Source: a virus (taxonomy: Duplodnaviria > Heunggongvirae > Uroviricota > Caudoviricetes). From it: a stretch of DNA of 6,571 nt. How positions within the stretch are numbered: position 1 is the stretch's first letter; the number at the start of each line of letters is the position of its first letter. Below, in pieces: positions 618-6,571 of the stretch. The translations under genes were made by a program, and so were the position numbers. The notes beneath the pieces were generated by a model. It did not search any database and was not told the origin of the DNA. It worked only from the letters and a program-made list of their open reading frames with translations. The stretch is taken from IMG/VR virus record IMGVR_UViG_2563366935_000003, one strand, 5' to 3'.

Positions 618-866
618 ATGGCAAAGGGTGTGTCAATTTCTCCAACTACGGTAAGAATCCCTGAATCTTTACGCGAGGCTCTTGCTGTCAGAGCATCAAA
701 AAATGGTCGCTCTGTTAACTCCGAGATCGTCATGATTTTGCAAGCCGCGATTGATGAAGATAGGTCGCCAAAGTCAGTTGAGTCATTTGCTCAGCAAGAA
801 GCTGATAAATTCAAAGAGGCGCTACTTGAGACGCTAAAGACCATGTATGCTAAGGATGAAAAATAA
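618..866 (+). CDS. Mnt-like ribbon-helix-helix repressor (82 aa) with C-terminal helical extension
   Basis: MAKGVSISPTTVRIPESLREALAVRASKNGRSVNSEIVMILQAAI... carries the RHH core (NGRSVNSE) and a C-terminal helical tail (FKEALLETLKTMYAKDEK) like the Mnt tetramerisation helix; length matches Mnt (about 83 aa). ATG at 618; the upstream track extension starts at TTG. Stop overlaps the next start (TAATG). Confidence 0.7.
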   Translation: MAKGVSISPTTVRIPESLREALAVRASKNGRSVNSEIVMILQAAIDEDRSPKSVESFAQQEADKFKEALLETLKTMYAKDEK

Positions 867-1402
867 TGCTGCACACAATTCATTTCTTATGCCCTGTTAA
901 CACTGCCACTGTTGGGCAACTTCAGAACCACTGTCTCACCGCATTATCTCAAGGCGCAACTGAATTAAATATCCATATATCAAGTCAGGGAGGGGAAACT
1001 GCTGCTGGCTTTACTGCGTATAACTTTCTTAAGTCACTCCCTGTTACCGTTAGAACTCACAACATAAGCAATGTTGAATCCATAGCTAATATCGTTTTCC
1101 TGGCTGGCTCAGAACGTTTCGCAAACCCATTATCAAGATTCCTGTTACATCCTCTATTATGGTGCTTTGCCTCCCCAGCCGCCGACCATGCCAGATTGAG
1201 AGAGTACGGGAAATGCCTCGATAACGATCTTGATCGCTTCGTTGAGACGTTCAATATCGACATCGGAACCCATATTAGGTGGGCATCCCTGATAGCAGAC
1301 TCGACCATTTTGGATGCTAACAAGGCTCTTGAGCATGGCATAATTAATTCCATAAAAACTGCAAGGCTGGCATCCAATCAGGCAAACTGGTGGGTTGTTT
1401 GA
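866..1402 (+). CDS. ClpP-family (peptidase S14-like) serine protease paralog, 178 aa
   Basis: Collinear with ClpP core motifs: ISSQGG vs INSPGG, a Ser 29 residues after the GG (VESIA vs GQAASMG), His in RFLLHPL vs RVMIHQP, Asp in ADSTI vs ERDRF, and C-terminal EHGIINSI vs EYGLVDSI. Translationally coupled to the Mnt-like gene. Confidence 0.65.
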   Translation: MLHTIHFLCPVNTATVGQLQNHCLTALSQGATELNIHISSQGGETAAGFTAYNFLKSLPVTVRTHNISNVESIANIVFLAGSERFANPLSRFLLHPLLWCFASPAADHARLREYGKCLDNDLDRFVETFNIDIGTHIRWASLIADSTILDANKALEHGIINSIKTARLASNQANWWVV

Positions 1403-1427: not shown

Positions 1428-1453
1428 AAAAAACCCACCTGACGGTGGGTTTA
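1428..1453. terminator. Bidirectional rho-independent terminator between convergent genes
   Basis: Perfect 9-bp stem AAACCCACC (1431-1439) / GGTGGGTTT (1444-1452) with loop TGAC, A-run upstream and T-run downstream; lies between the 3' ends of the ClpP-like gene (+) and the YafO-like gene (-). Confidence 0.6.
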
Positions 1454-1900
1454 GTCAAACATAGTGTTTCTAAAGTCTCTCGCATACCCTGCTAACACTC
1501 TCATTCTATTATGATTGTTAGCAGACATGTGAGCTACAGGATGAAAAAGAGCAATCAATGAATACCTGTTCTCATCAAAAAGATTTTGTGCATAAACGAG
1601 AGCGGTATTGGATGTTTTATGCCACTGCAACTTTTGCGGTGTGCTGATATCTGTGCCATTTTTTATTGGCTCAAATTTATTTTCACCAATTGCTAAATGA
1701 AGGTGCATAAGGCCTGCATCTTCAATATCAGGAGGTCGATGATAAGAGGTGTCTCTGCCAAAATAGCTGGGCAACGTTCCCGTAGACTTGTAGATGATAA
1801 AATCATCTACAAGTGTTTGTTTTAAATCAGGAAACTCAACAAAAACCGGGGAGAAAAAATAGTCAAAACTATCCTGATTATATTCCACGGTTACTTGCAT
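1451..1900 (-). CDS. YafO-family toxin-like protein (putative ribosome-dependent mRNA interferase), 149 aa
   Basis: Motifs DFIIYKSTGTLPSYFGRD, HLHLA, ALVYAQNLFDE, SLIALFHP and the C-terminal ANNHNRM...FR align collinearly with my recollection of E. coli YafO. ATG at 1900 with SD GAGGT; 8 nt downstream of the preceding gene's stop. Confidence 0.55.
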   Translation of the reverse strand: MQVTVEYNQDSFDYFFSPVFVEFPDLKQTLVDDFIIYKSTGTLPSYFGRDTSYHRPPDIEDAGLMHLHLAIGENKFEPIKNGTDISTPQKLQWHKTSNTALVYAQNLFDENRYSLIALFHPVAHMSANNHNRMRVLAGYARDFRNTMFD

Positions 1901-1908
1901 GTTTTACC

Positions 1909-2475
1909 TCAGTGGAAGTTACCAGAGTGAAACACACGAGTCCCGTGCTCAGCAAGCGCACGCAAACCAGCCATATCTACGGAACTATCAAAAACAACCG
2001 GAACACATGAGCGTTGTTTAATAAGACTATTCAGGTTGGTTACGGCAGATCTGGCATCAGCAACAACGATATAGATATCTCTTGCGATCTCTTTAAAATC
2101 AGCAGAAGCTTCTTTGAATACCGATTTCATTGCCCCTTCAAGTCCTCTCAATTGATGCTCTATCAATCGAGACTTTTCTGGTTCAATGATAGACAACACA
2201 TTGTCTACATTCTCATCGGTAGCGTTTGCAAGAACACGATAAGCGTATTTCAGCATTCGAGACAATTCTTTAATCGAAGACACCGCCTCATGAAGCTCAT
2301 CATTAGCCCGTTCACTGCTGAATGAGGATTGATGGTAAGCGTGCTGAACGTTATCAGTAACAACCACCTCACAACTGAACGCAGAAGCTTGCTGTAATAG
2401 CAAACCTATTGCGACTCCAGCTTTGGCAGCGTTCAAGCTAAACATTTCATCAATCCCATTAGTCTCATTGCTCAT
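1909..2475 (-). CDS. Hypothetical protein (188 aa), first gene of the operon with the YafO-like toxin; candidate non-canonical antitoxin or partner
   Basis: ATG at 2475 preceded by a near-perfect SD (AAGAAGGAGG); the track ORF start at 2505 is a TTG without RBS. No recognisable domain; sequence composition suggests a mostly helical soluble protein. Confidence 0.6.
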   Translation of the reverse strand: MSNETNGIDEMFSLNAAKAGVAIGLLLQQASAFSCEVVVTDNVQHAYHQSSFSSERANDELHEAVSSIKELSRMLKYAYRVLANATDENVDNVLSIIEPEKSRLIEHQLRGLEGAMKSVFKEASADFKEIARDIYIVVADARSAVTNLNSLIKQRSCVPVVFDSSVDMAGLRALAEHGTRVFHSGNFH

Positions 2476-2650
2476 ACAAACCTCCTTCTTATCGGAGATT
2501 ATCAATAGCTATGCATCCATTGAATACACGCTATGCGCAATAAGTTTACGTCACGTGATATCATTATGCAACCACCGTTCTATCACCGACTAACTTTACT
2601 CCCACTCCTATACATCATCTGGTATCCTGCGCAAAACTAAGGAGGTTGGT

Positions 2651-3001
2651 GTGAATGCTCAGTCTGTCATCATGGTTTTCCTTGGGCTGATTGTCGCAAA
2701 ACTATATCCAGACTGGTGGAAAGGGGCATTAGCTACTGTCGCCATCTATTTGCTTTTATCCATCGTTAAGCGATCACTCGCTGAGACCGTAAATCAAGCA
2801 AAACGTTTCTCATTTAAGAGTTTAATAAACTATGTTACTGGGCTTATTTTTTGCCTTTCAATTCTGATCGCTTCGGCTTTTTTGCCCGTATCAATAGCTA
2901 ATTTTTTTGGCGCACCATATGAGGTAGGTTATCTATTCTCTGTTTCCTGTCTTGCCATTGCTCTTCTTTACCTGTGGACGAGATCAAAGAATAAAAATTA
3001 G
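2651..3001 (+). CDS. Small polytopic inner-membrane protein (116 aa, about 4 predicted TM helices), function unknown
   Basis: GTG start 5 nt after a strong SD (TAAGGAGG, 2638-2645); four hydrophobic stretches (SVIMVFLGLIVAKL, ALATVAIYLLLSIV, LINYVTGLIFCLSILIASAFL, GYLFSVSCLAIALLYLW) and a basic C-terminus. Confidence 0.6.
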   Translation: MNAQSVIMVFLGLIVAKLYPDWWKGALATVAIYLLLSIVKRSLAETVNQAKRFSFKSLINYVTGLIFCLSILIASAFLPVSIANFFGAPYEVGYLFSVSCLAIALLYLWTRSKNKN

Positions 3002-3125
3002 CCATCCGTGGCTGCCAGTTATTGAGCTTCTTTTTGTGATGCCTGTGCGACTCTGGTGAGCGATTGTGTGACCGTACTGATCGCTCTGTCATATGCTGTG
3101 CTACCTTTTGGCGTATTTGCCAGAC

Positions 3126-3150
3126 TGAACCGCCCCGGGAATCCTGGAGA
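3126..3150. repeat. IS629 left terminal inverted repeat
   Basis: TGAACCGCCCCGGGAATCCTGGAGA is an imperfect inverted match to the right end at 4411-4435. Confidence 0.8.
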
Positions 3151-3179
3151 CTAAACTTCCTGAGAAAGAGGTAAACAGG

Positions 3180-3506
3180 ATGACTAAAAATACTCGTTTT
3201 TCCCCCGAAGTCCGTCAACGGGCAGTCCGTATGGTTCTGGAAAGTCAGAGCGAATATGACTCACAATGGGCGACAATTTGTTCCATTGCTCCAAAGATTG
3301 GCTGTACGCCGGAGACTCTGCGTGTCTGGGTTCGCCAGCATGAGCGGGATACCGGGGGCGGTGATGGAGGGCTCACCACCGCTGAACGTCAGCGTCTGAA
3401 AGAGCTGGAACGTGAAAAGCGTGAACTGCGCCGCAGTAACGATATCCTTCGCCAGGCTTCCGCTTATTTTGCGAAGGCGGAGTTCGACCGCCTCTGGAAA
3501 AAATGA
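3180..3506 (+). CDS. IS629 OrfA (108 aa; helix-turn-helix / leucine-zipper transposase subunit)
   Basis: [65 protein letters not shown]... is recognised as IS629/IS1203 OrfA; SD AGAGG upstream of the ATG. Confidence 0.9.
3497..3503 (+). other. Candidate programmed -1 ribosomal frameshift site (A-run GAAAAAA) at the OrfA/OrfB overlap
   Basis: OrfB lies in the -1 frame relative to OrfA and overlaps it by 4 nt; six consecutive A (3498-3503) sit in the last two OrfA codons. IS3-family elements make an OrfAB fusion transposase by -1 slippage on A-rich heptamers. Confidence 0.4.
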
Positions 3507-4393
3507 TGCCACTGCTGGATAAGCTGCGTGAGCAGTACGGGGTCGGACCGCTATGCAGCGAACTGCATATTGCCCCGTCAACGTATTACCACTGTCAGCA
3601 ACAGCGACATCATCCGGATAAACGCAGTGCCCGTGCGCAGCGCGATGACTGGCTGAAGAAAGAGATACAGCGCGTATACGATGAAAATCACAAGGTATAC
3701 GGTGTGCGTAAAGTCTGGCGTCAGTTGTTACGGGAAGGTATCAGAGTGGCCAGATGCACTGTGGCACGTCTCATGGCGGTTATGGGACTTGCCGGTGTTC
3801 TCCGGGGTAAAAAGGTCCGTACGACCATCAGCCGGAAAGCCGTTGCCGCAGGCGACCGCGTAAACCGTCAGTTCGTGGCAGAACGACCTGACCAGCTGTG
3901 GGTGGCTGATTTTACTTACGTCAGCACATGGCGGGGCTTCGTCTATGTGGCGTTCATCATTGATGTGTTTGCCGGATACATCGTGGGGTGGCGGGTCTCA
4001 TCGTCCATGGAAACGACATTCGTGCTGGATGCACTGGAGCAGGCGTTATGGGCCCGTCGACCGTCCGGCACGGTCCATCACAGTGATAAAGGTTCTCAGT
4101 ATGTATCGCTGGCCTACACACAGCGGCTTAAGGAAGCCGGATTACTGGCATCAACAGGAAGTACAGGCGACTCGTATGACAACGCGATGGCGGAGAGCAT
4201 CAATGGTCTTTACAAAGCGGAGGTAATACACCGTAAGAGCTGGAAAAACCGTGCAGAAGTGGAACTGGCCACACTCACGTGGGTGGACTGGTATAACAAT
4301 CGACGATTGCTGGAAAGGCTGGGCCATACTCCTCCGGCAGAAGCAGAAAAAGCTTATTATGCTTCCATCGGAAACGATGATCTGGCAGCCTGA
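3503..4393 (+). CDS. IS629 OrfB (296 aa; DDE/RNase H-fold transposase catalytic domain)
   Basis: [30 protein letters not shown]... recognised as IS629 OrfB; IS3-family catalytic-core signatures are visible ([24 protein letters not shown]). Confidence 0.9.
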
Positions 4394-4410
4394 GTTCACA
4401 GATAAAACAC

Positions 4411-4435
4411 TCTCCAGGAAACCCGGGGCGGTTCA
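4411..4435. repeat. IS629 right terminal inverted repeat
   Basis: Reverse complement TGAACCGCCCCGGGTTTCCTGGAGA matches the left end. Confidence 0.8.
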
Positions 4436-5593
4436 CATGATGATTGAGTCTGCGTCCTGTTCAATGCTTCCTGAATCACGCAAATCTGCGTTTGTCGGGC
4501 GTTTGTTTGGTCGCTTCTCAACATCGCGTGAAAGCTGACTCAGGGAAATAACCGGTGTTTTCAGGTCTTTCGCCATCGCCTTCAGGCTTCCGGAGATGTG
4601 AGCAATTGCGAGGTCGTTGCGGTCTGCTTTCGGCTTCTCAATCAGGCCAAGATAATCCGCCATGATGAGTGAGAGGTTTGGATTTTCCTGTTTGTGCCGT
4701 TCTGCGATTGAGCGTATTTCTTCGACCGATAATCGCGAGGCATCGACTACCCATACATCCAAATCTGCAAGCTGACTCATGCCGTTAGCAACACGTGCCC
4801 AGCCCTCGTCATCCATCGATGCAGGATTTCGCAGTACGCTAACCGACATCCTCCCGGCGTTGGCAATGCTTCGCTCTGCAATCTGCAATGCGCTCATTTC
4901 CATTGAGAAAATCAATACCCCGCGCCGGACGTCAGAACCAGGAATAACGCGGCTTGCAACGCCTTCGGCAATCTTCAGCGCCAGTTCGGTTTTCCCCATA
5001 CCAGGACGAGCAGCGATTATCACCAGGTCTTCCGCGTTCATCCCTCCGGTGATGGCATCAAGTTCTTCGATTCCGGTCTTCAGGGTATCGGACTCTTCTC
5101 CGTTCCTCAGACGCCTGTCAAGCGTGTCAGTGTAGTCGGTGATGATTTCCCCTAACCGTACAGGTTTAACCTCGTCACGGGGCTTTCTGATGGCTGAGAG
5201 ACGTTTTACAAGTTCATCCATCGCCTGACTCGATGCGTCGATGGTTCCGCTTTGGATTGGTTCACGCATTTCATCCATGATTTCCAGCACCAGACGGCGG
5301 TGATAGTTATCCGCGACCATTCCGGCATATCCCTTCAGGTTTGCGGCGCTCGGGCAGTTTTTGCTGGTCATCAGGATTGACGTGAAATGCTCCTCTCCGC
5401 ACGCCTCGGCAACCATCAGCGCGTCGATTAGGTTTCTGTTTCTCGCCTGCTTCCGGATAACCTCGAAGGCTTTCCGGTAGAGCGGAATTGAAAACGCTTC
5501 CGGCTCCAGCGTTGCAAGAACGTCACTGGCGGTTGGAGTTAATCCACCAATCAGCAGGCCACCGATAACGCTCGCTTCGATATCCTGTCTCAT
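4433..5593 (-). pseudogene. Phage DnaB-like replicative helicase, 3'-truncated by IS629 (about 55-60 C-terminal residues missing)
   Basis: 386-aa translation with DnaB N-terminal domain, Walker A ([10 protein letters not shown]), Walker B (LIMADYLGL) and the motif [32 protein letters not shown]. Reading frame stops only 3 codons after EQDAD, using the TGA formed by the IS629 terminus (4433-4435), where E. coli DnaB has about 55 more residues. Confidence 0.85.
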
Positions 5594-5947
5594 GCAATCC
5601 CCCTGTCTGCAAACTTCCCTTCCCGAACTCCCGTTAACGAGTCTTCTCTCAGCAGGTAATCAAAATCAGCCGTCCAGCCCGTGTCGTTGTCTCCGAAGTA
5701 AAACGGCTTGGCCTGATGCACAAACGCCCTGACATACGCTCTGAAACCGTCCACGTTTGGCGTTTTCAGTTGCGGGATGATTTTCTTCAGGCGGCGTTTT
5801 CGTTTCTCGTTGACCGCAACAGCGTGTGGCAGTCTGTCACCGACTTCGGTGTTGTAGGCGTTCAGGAAGGATTCGTAGTCGATTCGTTCTGCCTTGCGAC
5901 GTTCAGGTTTAACCTGCCCATCGCCTCCCCCATTGGGGGGTAGGGGG

Positions 5948-5975
5948 GTATTATTTATATTCTTGTTAATACCTT
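5948..5975. other. AT-rich stretch adjacent to the iterons (candidate DNA-unwinding element), next to a G/C-rich near-palindrome CCCCCATTGGGGGG (5926-5939)
   Basis: attatttatattcttgttaatacc is strongly AT-rich relative to its surroundings and lies immediately downstream of the iterons in the gene's direction, mirroring ori-lambda organisation. Confidence 0.4.
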
Positions 5976-5980
5976 CTTGT

Positions 5981-6110
5981 TCATGATGTGCGGTTGTTTG
6001 TGCGGCTTCATGTGCGCTTTCATGTGCGGCATGTACGCTGAAAGCCGCGCTATTGCTGGCTTCATCATGTGCGGCATCATGTGCGGTTGTTTGTGCGGCT
6101 TCATGTGCGG
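5981..6110. repeat. Iteron array (candidate phage replication origin): about 8 copies of a 12-bp unit, consensus yTTCATGTGCGG, in two clusters; includes an exact 31-bp duplication (5986-6016 and 6079-6109)
   Basis: Directly visible tandem periodicity: tgtgcggttgtt / tgtgcggcttca / tgtgcgctttca / tgtgcggcatgt ... catgtgcggcatca / tgtgcggttgtt / tgtgcggcttca / tgtgcggg. Lies inside the initiator gene, as ori-lambda lies inside O. Confidence 0.6.
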
Positions 6111-6354
6111 GTAAATTGTCCATTTTTTGAGCATATTCATGGTAATTTGTGATGGTTATCACACGGCCTTTTTGCTTCTCTCCATCAATGGAGATCATCC
6201 CCTCTTTCACAAAAACCTGAAGCATCCGCTCAACCTGATCACGGCTTGCTGGCTTGCCATGTCTGTCGCATAACTGAAGACCTAAATCAGCTGCTGTCAC
6301 AACCAGTTGACCGGGTTGCAGATGCCATTCATGACCTTTGAAATTCGCTTTGTA

Positions 6355-6571
6355 TGAACCGCCCCGGGTTTCCTGGAGAGTGTTTTATCTGTGAACTCAG
6401 GCTGCCAGATCATCGTTTCCGATGGAAGCATAATAAGCTTTTTCTGCTTCTGCCGGAGGAGTATGGCCCAGCCTTTCCAGCAATCGTCGATTGTTATACC
6501 AGTCCACCCACGTGAGTGTGGCCAGTTCCACTTCTGCACGGTTTTTCCAGCTCTTACGGTGTATTACCTCC
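6355..6571 (-). mobile_element. IS629 3'-terminal fragment in inverted orientation, truncated by the window edge
   Basis: 6355-6571 is the exact reverse complement of 4219-4435 of the complete copy; the terminal IR begins at 6355 (TGAACCGCCCCGGGTTTCC...). Confidence 0.9.
6397..6571 (-). CDS. IS629 transposase OrfB, C-terminal fragment (minus strand, partial at window end)
   Basis: Reverse complement is identical to the 3' end of OrfB; stop codon is at 6397-6399 on the minus strand. Confidence 0.85.
   Translation of the reverse strand, partial: EVIHRKSWKNRAEVELATLTWVDWYNNRRLLERLGHTPPAEAEKAYYASIGNDDLAA

Follow-up and report, generated by a model that had tools for sequence, protein, structure and literature searches.

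To our knowledge, SieA of phage P22 is the only inner-membrane exclusion protein that has been characterised for a short-tailed phage, and we know of no explanation so far for its recognition of very divergent ejection proteins. SieA-escape mutations of P22 affect gp16 and gp20 in their C-terminal parts, and two SieA types with a mutual identity of only 24% behave alike (Leavitt et al. 2024, PMC10883804). In the same study, a single copy of P22 sieA with 85 bp of its own upstream DNA, containing a putative promoter of its own, sufficed for exclusion. For its 'recognized hotspots of immunity', the Tai paper (PMC11364771) gives the original sieA report (Hofer et al. 1995) as one of the references. 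The surrounding region was described as being in rapid flux, with the APEC O1 prophage listed among its variants (Villafane et al. 2008, PMC2629481), and its variability is already known from the published work. Here, we describe ORF116, an open reading frame (ORF) encoding 116 amino acids (aa) in a 6,571-nucleotide (nt) stretch of Caudoviricetes DNA (IMG/VR record IMGVR_UViG_2563366935_000003, referred to as the window). ORF116 is very probably a genuine membrane-protein gene in the slot that sieA occupies in P22. At a probability of roughly 40%, its product is predicted to be a prophage-expressed inner-membrane exclusion protein working like SieA.

The window comes from a P22-like prophage of K1-type extraintestinal pathogenic Escherichia coli (K1/ExPEC), cut by IS3-family insertion sequence (IS) elements. 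The region is 100% identical to the prophage found in E. coli S88, APEC O1, ATCC 11775 and other extraintestinal strains. In S88, this prophage adjoins tRNA-Arg and intS and has P22-type head, ejection and tailspike genes. CUS-3 was considered as the identity of the prophage and was rejected: attachment side and tailspike type are the same, but CUS-3 has a different gene 16 and carries HkcB in the slot. The gene order in S88 and ATCC 11775 is tailspike, ant, arc, an mnt-like gene, a ClpP-like gene, a YafO-family toxin gene (minus strand), a gene for a 188-aa protein (minus), ORF116 (plus) and gene 16 (minus). Comparison with P22 and HS1 placed ORF116 of both strains between the gene 16 and gene 9 homologues, convergent with gene 16. 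In P22, sieA follows gene 16 directly, is convergent with it and lies on the mnt side; place and orientation of ORF116 are identical.

The correspondence extends to the sequence at both borders of the slot. Positions 2620-2653 of the window are identical in 33 of 34 nt to the P22 sequence TGGTATCCTGCACAAAACTAAGGAGGTTGGTGTG, which ends in the sieA GTG (L003 13828-13861, minus strand), and type-B sieA of E. coli HS1 is preceded by a diverged copy of the same element. This constant 'sieA-slot' cassette (2614-2653, plus strand) is composed of a leader with an extended -10-like sequence, TGGTATCCT, at 2620-2628, a Shine-Dalgarno sequence, a 5-nt spacer and the GTG. The leader fold was unremarkable (z = +0.41). 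The 3' boundary is a short hairpin, AGCCA-tccg-TGGCT (3000-3013), between the convergent stop codons. On the plus strand it has a folding energy of -7.9 kcal/mol (z = -2.3), and a terminator-like match was found on the minus strand. Every ORF116 locus has CCATCCnTGG after the stop codon, as do many other cargo families; behind P22 sieA there is a related form. From its sequence, the hairpin together with a minus-strand T-run may terminate gene 16 transcripts. In some loci the stem is kept through two-sided changes, with a G-C pair in the window and an A-U pair in L007. The T-run falls within the Lys/Asn-rich last codons of ORF116, and the C-terminal tail of the protein may be partly shaped by a putative terminator of gene 16.

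The ORF116 coding sequence covers 2651-3001 on the plus strand, with a GTG start and a TAG stop at 2999-3001, as read from the ORF list, the homologues and the excess of synonymous over nonsynonymous differences (pN < pS). The sequence-only reading of this DNA had described a 116-aa ORF with a GTG start and a consensus Shine-Dalgarno sequence; both the frame and AAGGAGG at 2639-2645, 5 nt ahead of GTG 2651, were verified. RefSeq start models conflict, giving 109 aa (from ATG 2672), 116 aa or, in other genomes, 130 aa from an upstream ATG. The loci with these conflicting starts include L001 9273-9602 and L004 6984-7373. Four distant homologues with 37-38% identity have an ATG and a Shine-Dalgarno sequence exactly at the position of GTG 2651, and all distant homologues begin with MN[AGY]Q. 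Because of these two features and the constant cassette, the 116-aa model was preferred over the 109-aa and 130-aa models. The start codon of P22 SieA has been called uncertain, yielding 162 or 164 aa (Leavitt et al. 2024, PMC10883804). Since the cassette GTG precedes about 12 unrelated ORFs, the sequences suggest that P22 SieA also starts there and has 164 aa.

Database searches placed ORF116 in a small family of its own. No significant family was found in Pfam (a copy without PF26849), PHROGs, PADLOC or NCBIfam; thus the homology search that the sequence-only reading had named as a check matched neither a housekeeping membrane family nor any other. Tblastn against 50,697 phage records gave no ORF116 match, and the gene is absent from these sequenced phage isolates. 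A word-indexed search of 5.8 billion proteins returned only relatives of at least 71% identity, all from Enterobacterales (E. coli, Salmonella, Edwardsiella and Yersinia). With a HMMER profile, seven clusters were recovered from 1.84 billion representatives, all of them members of the ORF116 family; the other full-length clusters are the four at 37-38% identity. No PDB sequence matched at E up to 1. Foldseek, run on BFVD and PDB with a low-confidence model as query, gave nothing below E = 1, and its holin matches lay above that value. Against Phage_holin_3_6 in Pfam, ORF116 reached 13.7 bits (E = 0.065), short of the cut-off of 28.4 bits; in the S88 context the gene is also not adjacent to lysis genes, so that it does not qualify as a holin on that ground either. 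No Rfam family was detected within 2400-3130. A scan of GTDB genomes produced one match, in Bacteriovoracaceae, which lies inside an opposite-strand 884-aa ORF read as an M1-type aminopeptidase and was discarded as spurious.

Among 5426 complete E. coli genomes, ORF116 was found in 229 (about 4%), always on the chromosome and including K1 extraintestinal lineages. Two allele groups were distinguished, one at 99% identity or more and one at about 93%; the latter accounts for about 167 of the 229 carriers, and the carriers listed are of varied strain backgrounds. In all pairwise comparisons pN was below pS, and in close pairs the ratio of nonsynonymous to synonymous substitution rates (dN/dS) was 0.39-0.46. 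The dN of ORF116 was about 0.65 compared with 0.21-0.32 for the adjacent gp16 C-terminus, roughly a twofold difference. ORF116 is a genuine gene that evolves fast under purifying selection. Fast evolution under constraint is a pattern usual for genes of phage-phage conflict, and it was counted in favour of an exclusion function. These data also bear on the idea that ORF116 is a passenger of defective prophages that is in decay or has no function. The prophage of the window is indeed broken by IS elements, the family is tiny with its seven representative clusters among 1.84 billion, and the RefSeq starts vary between 109, 116 and 130 aa. However, even homologues with 37% identity retain the reading frame, its length, the start position and the hydrophobic pattern, every pair has a pN lower than its pS, and at least 80% of the gene is covered in 227 of the 229 carrier genomes. 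We consider this idea the least probable of all.

The protein is predicted to be almost wholly embedded in the membrane. Four hydrophobic segments were detected by hydropathy at about aa 4-19, 25-39, 57-87 and 92-110, and two AlphaFold runs produced the same four helices (aa 3-18, 22-48, 55-85 and 90-115) with low confidence, the predicted local distance difference test (pLDDT) being 55.8 and 66.5. Both results agree with the four-transmembrane protein proposed by the sequence-only reading. Helix 1 (2660-2707; all four on the plus strand) covers aa 4-19 and ends in an invariant K-L-Y-P turn (aa 17-20). After helix 2 (2723-2767, aa 25-39) comes a basic loop (aa 40-56, net charge +4) that is predicted to be cytoplasmic. 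Helix 3 (2819-2911, aa 57-87) contains the invariant residues Y61, G64, L65, F67 and P79, and helix 4 (2924-2980, aa 92-110) leads into a basic C-terminal tail with R111, K113 and K115. The invariant residues of the family are thus concentrated in the K17-L-Y-P20 turn and in helix 3. With +4 in loop 40-56 and +3 at the C-terminus, the positive-inside rule suggests a topology with both termini in the cytoplasm and with short periplasmic loops at about aa 20 and aa 89. A re-entrant hairpin is a possible alternative, since segments 1 and 2 span no more than about 15 residues each. SieA proteins are characterised by three to four transmembrane helices; ORF116 shows four hydrophobic segments, two of them short, and four predicted helices in low-confidence models. 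The location of the protein is predicted to be the inner membrane.

ORF116 is further connected to gene 16. At every locus examined, namely S88, two E. coli islands and four contigs with distant homologues, a convergent gene 16 is the next gene, with its stop codon 17-24 nt away. The gene 16 copies beside ORF116 are of one sequence type, with 56-94% mutual identity and about 30% identity to P22 gp16. ORF116 homologues pair with this type only, and other cargos pair with several. The S88 copy is annotated as 'P22-gp16 family phage DNA ejection protein' and is 30% identical to P22 gp16 over its full length. Gene 16 homology was assessed by BLASTP; the local Pfam and NCBIfam copies lack newer models and recognised no gene 16 protein. 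In the window, only the 3' end of gene 16 is left (3019-3125, minus strand; the last approximately 35 codons), truncated by an IS element and identical to S88 gene 16 up to 3125.

The exclusive pairing with one gene 16 type could also mean that ORF116 is a partner of its own gp16, which would, for example, shield the inner membrane of the producing cell from late membrane-active gp16 or tune the ejection proteins. Other phages would then not be excluded by it. Gp16 has been reported to be membrane-associated, and P22 sieA, which has the same leader, was reported to be upregulated upon prophage induction (PMC10883804). Nevertheless, ORF116 lies on the strand opposite to the late operon, and the cassette is common to sieA and to cargos that are paired with different gene 16 types. 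Most P22-like phages lack ORF116, as judged from the phage records searched above. Moreover, the IS insertion has destroyed gene 16 of the window, yet ORF116 is 100% identical to the allele of intact prophages. A partnership with gp16 thus appears improbable.

The allele of about 93% identity resides between yicC and yicG, in an island that measures about 20 kb and holds an integrase, regulators and a TOPRIM/DUF927 primase. The sole phage structural genes of this island are P22-like genes 14, 7, 20 and 16, followed by the ORF116 allele; capsid, terminase and tail genes are lacking. By its gene content, the island looks like a phage satellite that brings its own ejection proteins. We found no paper joining 'satellite', 'ejection proteins' and 'P22-like' in the literature searched. 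The island was observed in E. coli U14A (L016, NZ_CP035516.1 4046090-4065705) and also as L004 and L009, and its content comprises integrase, a helix-turn-helix regulator, AntA/B, ash, the TOPRIM/DUF927 primase, PerC and a Doc toxin.

The cassette is not restricted to sieA and ORF116. The exact 33-mer was present in 67 IMG/VR contigs, where it precedes about 12 unrelated ORF families. Eleven of these, including SieA, are membrane or secreted proteins with transmembrane segments or signal peptides. The families are SieA type A, ORF116, two two-helix proteins, three signal-peptide proteins, one soluble protein and four groups with a single N-terminal helix (HkcB-like in two variants, a 109-aa, a 103-106-aa and a 149-aa protein). 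In other P22-like prophages of E. coli, an identical cassette stands ahead of small, unrelated membrane ORFs (62 and 75 aa). The 62-aa cargo was compared with orf62 of phage L, and this identification was dropped after tblastn matched phiv205-1, UPF_BP1 and JEP4, but not L. Upstream sequence types and downstream cargos combine freely across the cassette, which therefore acts as a crossover point; only the last 37-40 nt of the 175-bp intergenic region upstream of ORF116, that is the cassette, are common to other contexts. With cassette and hairpin as the criterion, which was derived within the present analysis, ORF116 is a sieA-slot cargo of the 'ant moron' (Villafane et al. 2008, PMC2629481). 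In an incomplete search of the literature, we did not find the frame of cassette and hairpin, the cargo census or ORF116 as a non-SieA cargo linked to a gene 16 type.

Since the slot takes many kinds of cargo, a different envelope function is the main rival of a SieA-like role, even if we regard it as somewhat unlikely. ORF116 would then be expressed from the prophage to exclude unrelated phages or colicins, or to provide a membrane property that aids the K1/ExPEC host. This would agree with a slot filled by many unrelated cargos, secreted and soluble ones included, with the missing similarity to SieA and with the prophage allele being found mainly in K1-type extraintestinal strains. On the other hand, the gene 16 neighbour is constant across deep divergence, which points to the ejection machinery and not to host physiology. 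ORF116 also occurs in satellite-like islands in which the only phage structural genes encode ejection proteins, approximately 167 of 229 carriers have the 93% allele, and the carriers listed are of varied strain backgrounds.

Several further observations weigh against a function like that of SieA. ORF116 is not a detectable SieA homologue. BLASTP against P22 SieA gave E = 0.29, and in hhalign the ORF116 family, compared with SieA type A and HS1 type B, reached a probability of 0.15% (E = 0.39). In precomputed Pfam annotation, PF26849 was assigned to SieA homologues and to none of the ORF116 homologues. The SieA motif FxRYPxEAxxFNK is present in 10 of 10 aligned SieA sequences and absent from ORF116, the C-terminus of which reads ...LLYLWTRSKNKN. 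The most conserved motif of ORF116 is predicted to be periplasmic, whereas that of SieA is cytoplasmic. SieA is the only slot cargo with a known function, and the cargos include one soluble family and several secreted ones; the slot may serve accessory genes in general and not exclusion in particular. Confidence in the structural models is low (pLDDT 56-66). Linkage to gene 16 could be simple co-inheritance of neighbouring DNA.

Transcription adds to these reservations. A promoter scan upstream of ORF116 detected no consensus sigma-70 promoter on the plus strand. Two candidates were picked by hand, TGGTATCCT as an extended -10 and an nnTCAT hexamer at the 5' edge of the cassette, where the P22 record ends its annotated sieA promoter. 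From these candidate sites, the promoter of ORF116 may lie inside the cassette or at its 5' edge. The gene had been called strongly expressed-looking; the Shine-Dalgarno sequence fits this description, but the result of the promoter scan does not, and neither does P22 sieA, which has the same leader and for which weak transcription in lysogens is reported (PMC10883804).

Upstream, ORF116 diverges from an operon of two genes (1451-2475, minus strand) encoding the 188-aa protein (phrog_8416) and, 8 nt on, the YafO-family toxin (Pfam E = 3.4e-22). The 188-aa protein matched no known antitoxin family in the Pfam and PHROG results. In CUS-3, a different pair of 199 and 139 aa occupies the equivalent place on the other strand. 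The minus-strand gene starts at ATG 2475 (RefSeq, 188 aa); within the longer ORF, residue 11 is the first one aligned to the PHROG. With this start, the divergent region is 2476-2650 (175 bp), the extent given by the sequence-only reading. A putative leftward sigma-70 promoter for the 188-aa/YafO operon was read from the sequence at 2543-2571 (minus strand; TTGCAT, 17-nt spacer, TAAACT); its score of 8/12 is under the scanner threshold. The palindromes TCACGTGA (2551-2558) and GATATC (2557-2562) are present, and TCACGTGA and TGATATCA (2556-2563) lie within the spacer of this promoter. The intergenic region contains three 8-bp palindromes compared with 0.79 expected, a marginal excess (P ~0.05). 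In relatives of 75% identity both promoter hexamers are conserved and the palindromes are not. At most, then, the palindromes serve the leftward operon as operators; those named by the sequence-only reading are present, but a role as operators shared with ORF116 is unsupported.

Divergence from the YafO-family toxin gene, the marginal palindrome excess and the weak, sub-threshold holin resemblance (Pfam E = 0.065) would be in line with ORF116 being a membrane effector or toxin of an abortive-infection or toxin-antitoxin module formed with the 188-aa/YafO operon. The adjacency is not conserved, however. The YafO pair is missing from the island loci and from those of the distant homologues, and ORF116 cannot be assigned to such a module. 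Likewise, the same YafO-side upstream sequence is joined elsewhere to other cargos, the 62-aa and 140-aa ORFs. ORF116 travels with gene 16 and not with the 188-aa/YafO pair, and the proposed link to the toxin operon is not supported. There was no PADLOC match and the palindromes are not conserved in relatives. The leader is that of P22 sieA, which in single copy with its own 85 bp of upstream sequence, the leader included, hardly alters growth, if at all (PMC10883804), making it a poor fit for a lethal effector; the abortive-infection effector suggested by the sequence-only reading is thereby disfavoured. Altogether, we consider membership in such a module very improbable. The suggested parallel to P22 sieA beside immI, in turn, proved closer than claimed, extending to slot, leader, Shine-Dalgarno sequence, GTG and type of 3' hairpin.

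A SieA-like role is favoured because of the shared slot, orientation, translation start region and 3' boundary, the predicted membrane location and the gene 16 linkage. We infer that ORF116 is expressed in the lysogen. According to the proposed mechanism, ORF116 would be transcribed against the late operon from its own signals and translated from a leader, Shine-Dalgarno sequence and GTG of the P22 sieA type. The protein would insert into the inner membrane with four helices and both termini in the cytoplasm, exposing a conserved K-L-Y-P-D-W-W turn at the periplasmic face. There, at the inner membrane, it might interfere with the gp20/gp16 DNA-delivery conduit of incoming P22-like phages, and the incoming DNA would thereby be kept out of the cytoplasm. 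Expression would occur from the prophage and possibly also from satellites. A more far-reaching version, which we hold to be rather doubtful, is that ORF116 founds a new class of inner-membrane injection blockers that are unrelated to SieA and tied to one gp16 type. Cassette and hairpin would in that case constitute a plug-and-play exclusion locus of P22-like phages, shared with satellite-like islands that bring their own ejection proteins.

The remaining features of the window reflect its history. An IS3-family insertion sequence with a two-ORF transposase occupies 3126-4435 (plus strand; ORFs 3180-3506 and 3503-4393, RefSeq 'IS3 family transposase'). Its breakpoint at 3126 was taken from the comparison with S88 and its right end at 4435 from repeated end sequences. 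Three copies or ends of the same element are found, at 1-95, 3126-4435 and ~6355-6571. At the IS boundary, a dnaB-like helicase gene (4433-5593, minus strand) is cut short and lacks its 3' end. Head and tail genes present between these genes in intact relatives are missing. The prophage of the window is rearranged and defective; the block of immI, YafO and ORF116 is still intact. Within the immunity region, a ClpP-like serine-protease gene (866-1402, plus strand) directly follows the mnt-like repressor gene, with overlapping stop and start codons. This is an odd place for a protein resembling a head-maturation enzyme, and the module is also present in phiv205-1 and EC.P3. The replication-protein ORF (5590-6300, minus strand) contains a repetitive His/Ala-rich stretch, AHEAAQTTAH...HESAHEAAQTTAHH.

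If the broader proposal is correct, at least 12 interchangeable cargo families, mostly of the envelope, become candidates for exclusion or defence. Should ORF116 also block injection, it would offer an independent handle on the gp20/gp16 conduit where it crosses the inner membrane. A second, unrelated protein in the sieA slot could help to explain how divergent ejection proteins are recognised. With the constant cassette as a tag, alternative cargos can readily be collected from genomes, as was done here for about 12 families. For the E. coli carriers, ORF116 could affect susceptibility to P22-like or K1-specific phages.

Small phage inner-membrane proteins that block DNA entry include HK97 gp15 and T4 Imm, and lambda RexB has an exclusion role and four transmembrane segments. 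These proteins come from long-tailed or contractile-tailed phages and from other genomic contexts. Homology of ORF116 to any of them was not detectable, in that the profile search of 1.84 billion representatives found the ORF116 family only; they were not compared individually. HK97 gp15 is also discussed in PMC10883804. Closer in context are HkcB of HK620 and CUS-3 and the other slot cargos (PHROGs 5962, 21338, 7294, 2651, 10450, 8100, 19844 and 21022), which start from the same cassette GTG in the same slot and, as ORF116, are nearly all small envelope proteins. Their sequences are unrelated to it. HkcB has one N-terminal transmembrane segment and a coiled coil, and the others have two segments or a signal peptide; ORF116 is the sole four-helix cargo and the sole one without a PHROG family. 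SieA (P22; types A, B and C; PF26849) differs in its length of 164-212 aa compared with 116 aa, and in a long cytoplasmic loop and the C-terminal FxRYPxEAxxFNK, both missing in ORF116, the motif of which, KLYPDWW, is predicted to be periplasmic. SieA and ORF116 nevertheless have in common the slot, the leader, the Shine-Dalgarno sequence, the GTG and a similar 3' hairpin. Both are small and are predicted to be polytopic inner-membrane proteins with three to four helices, and both are confined to Enterobacterales with P22-like ejection genes.

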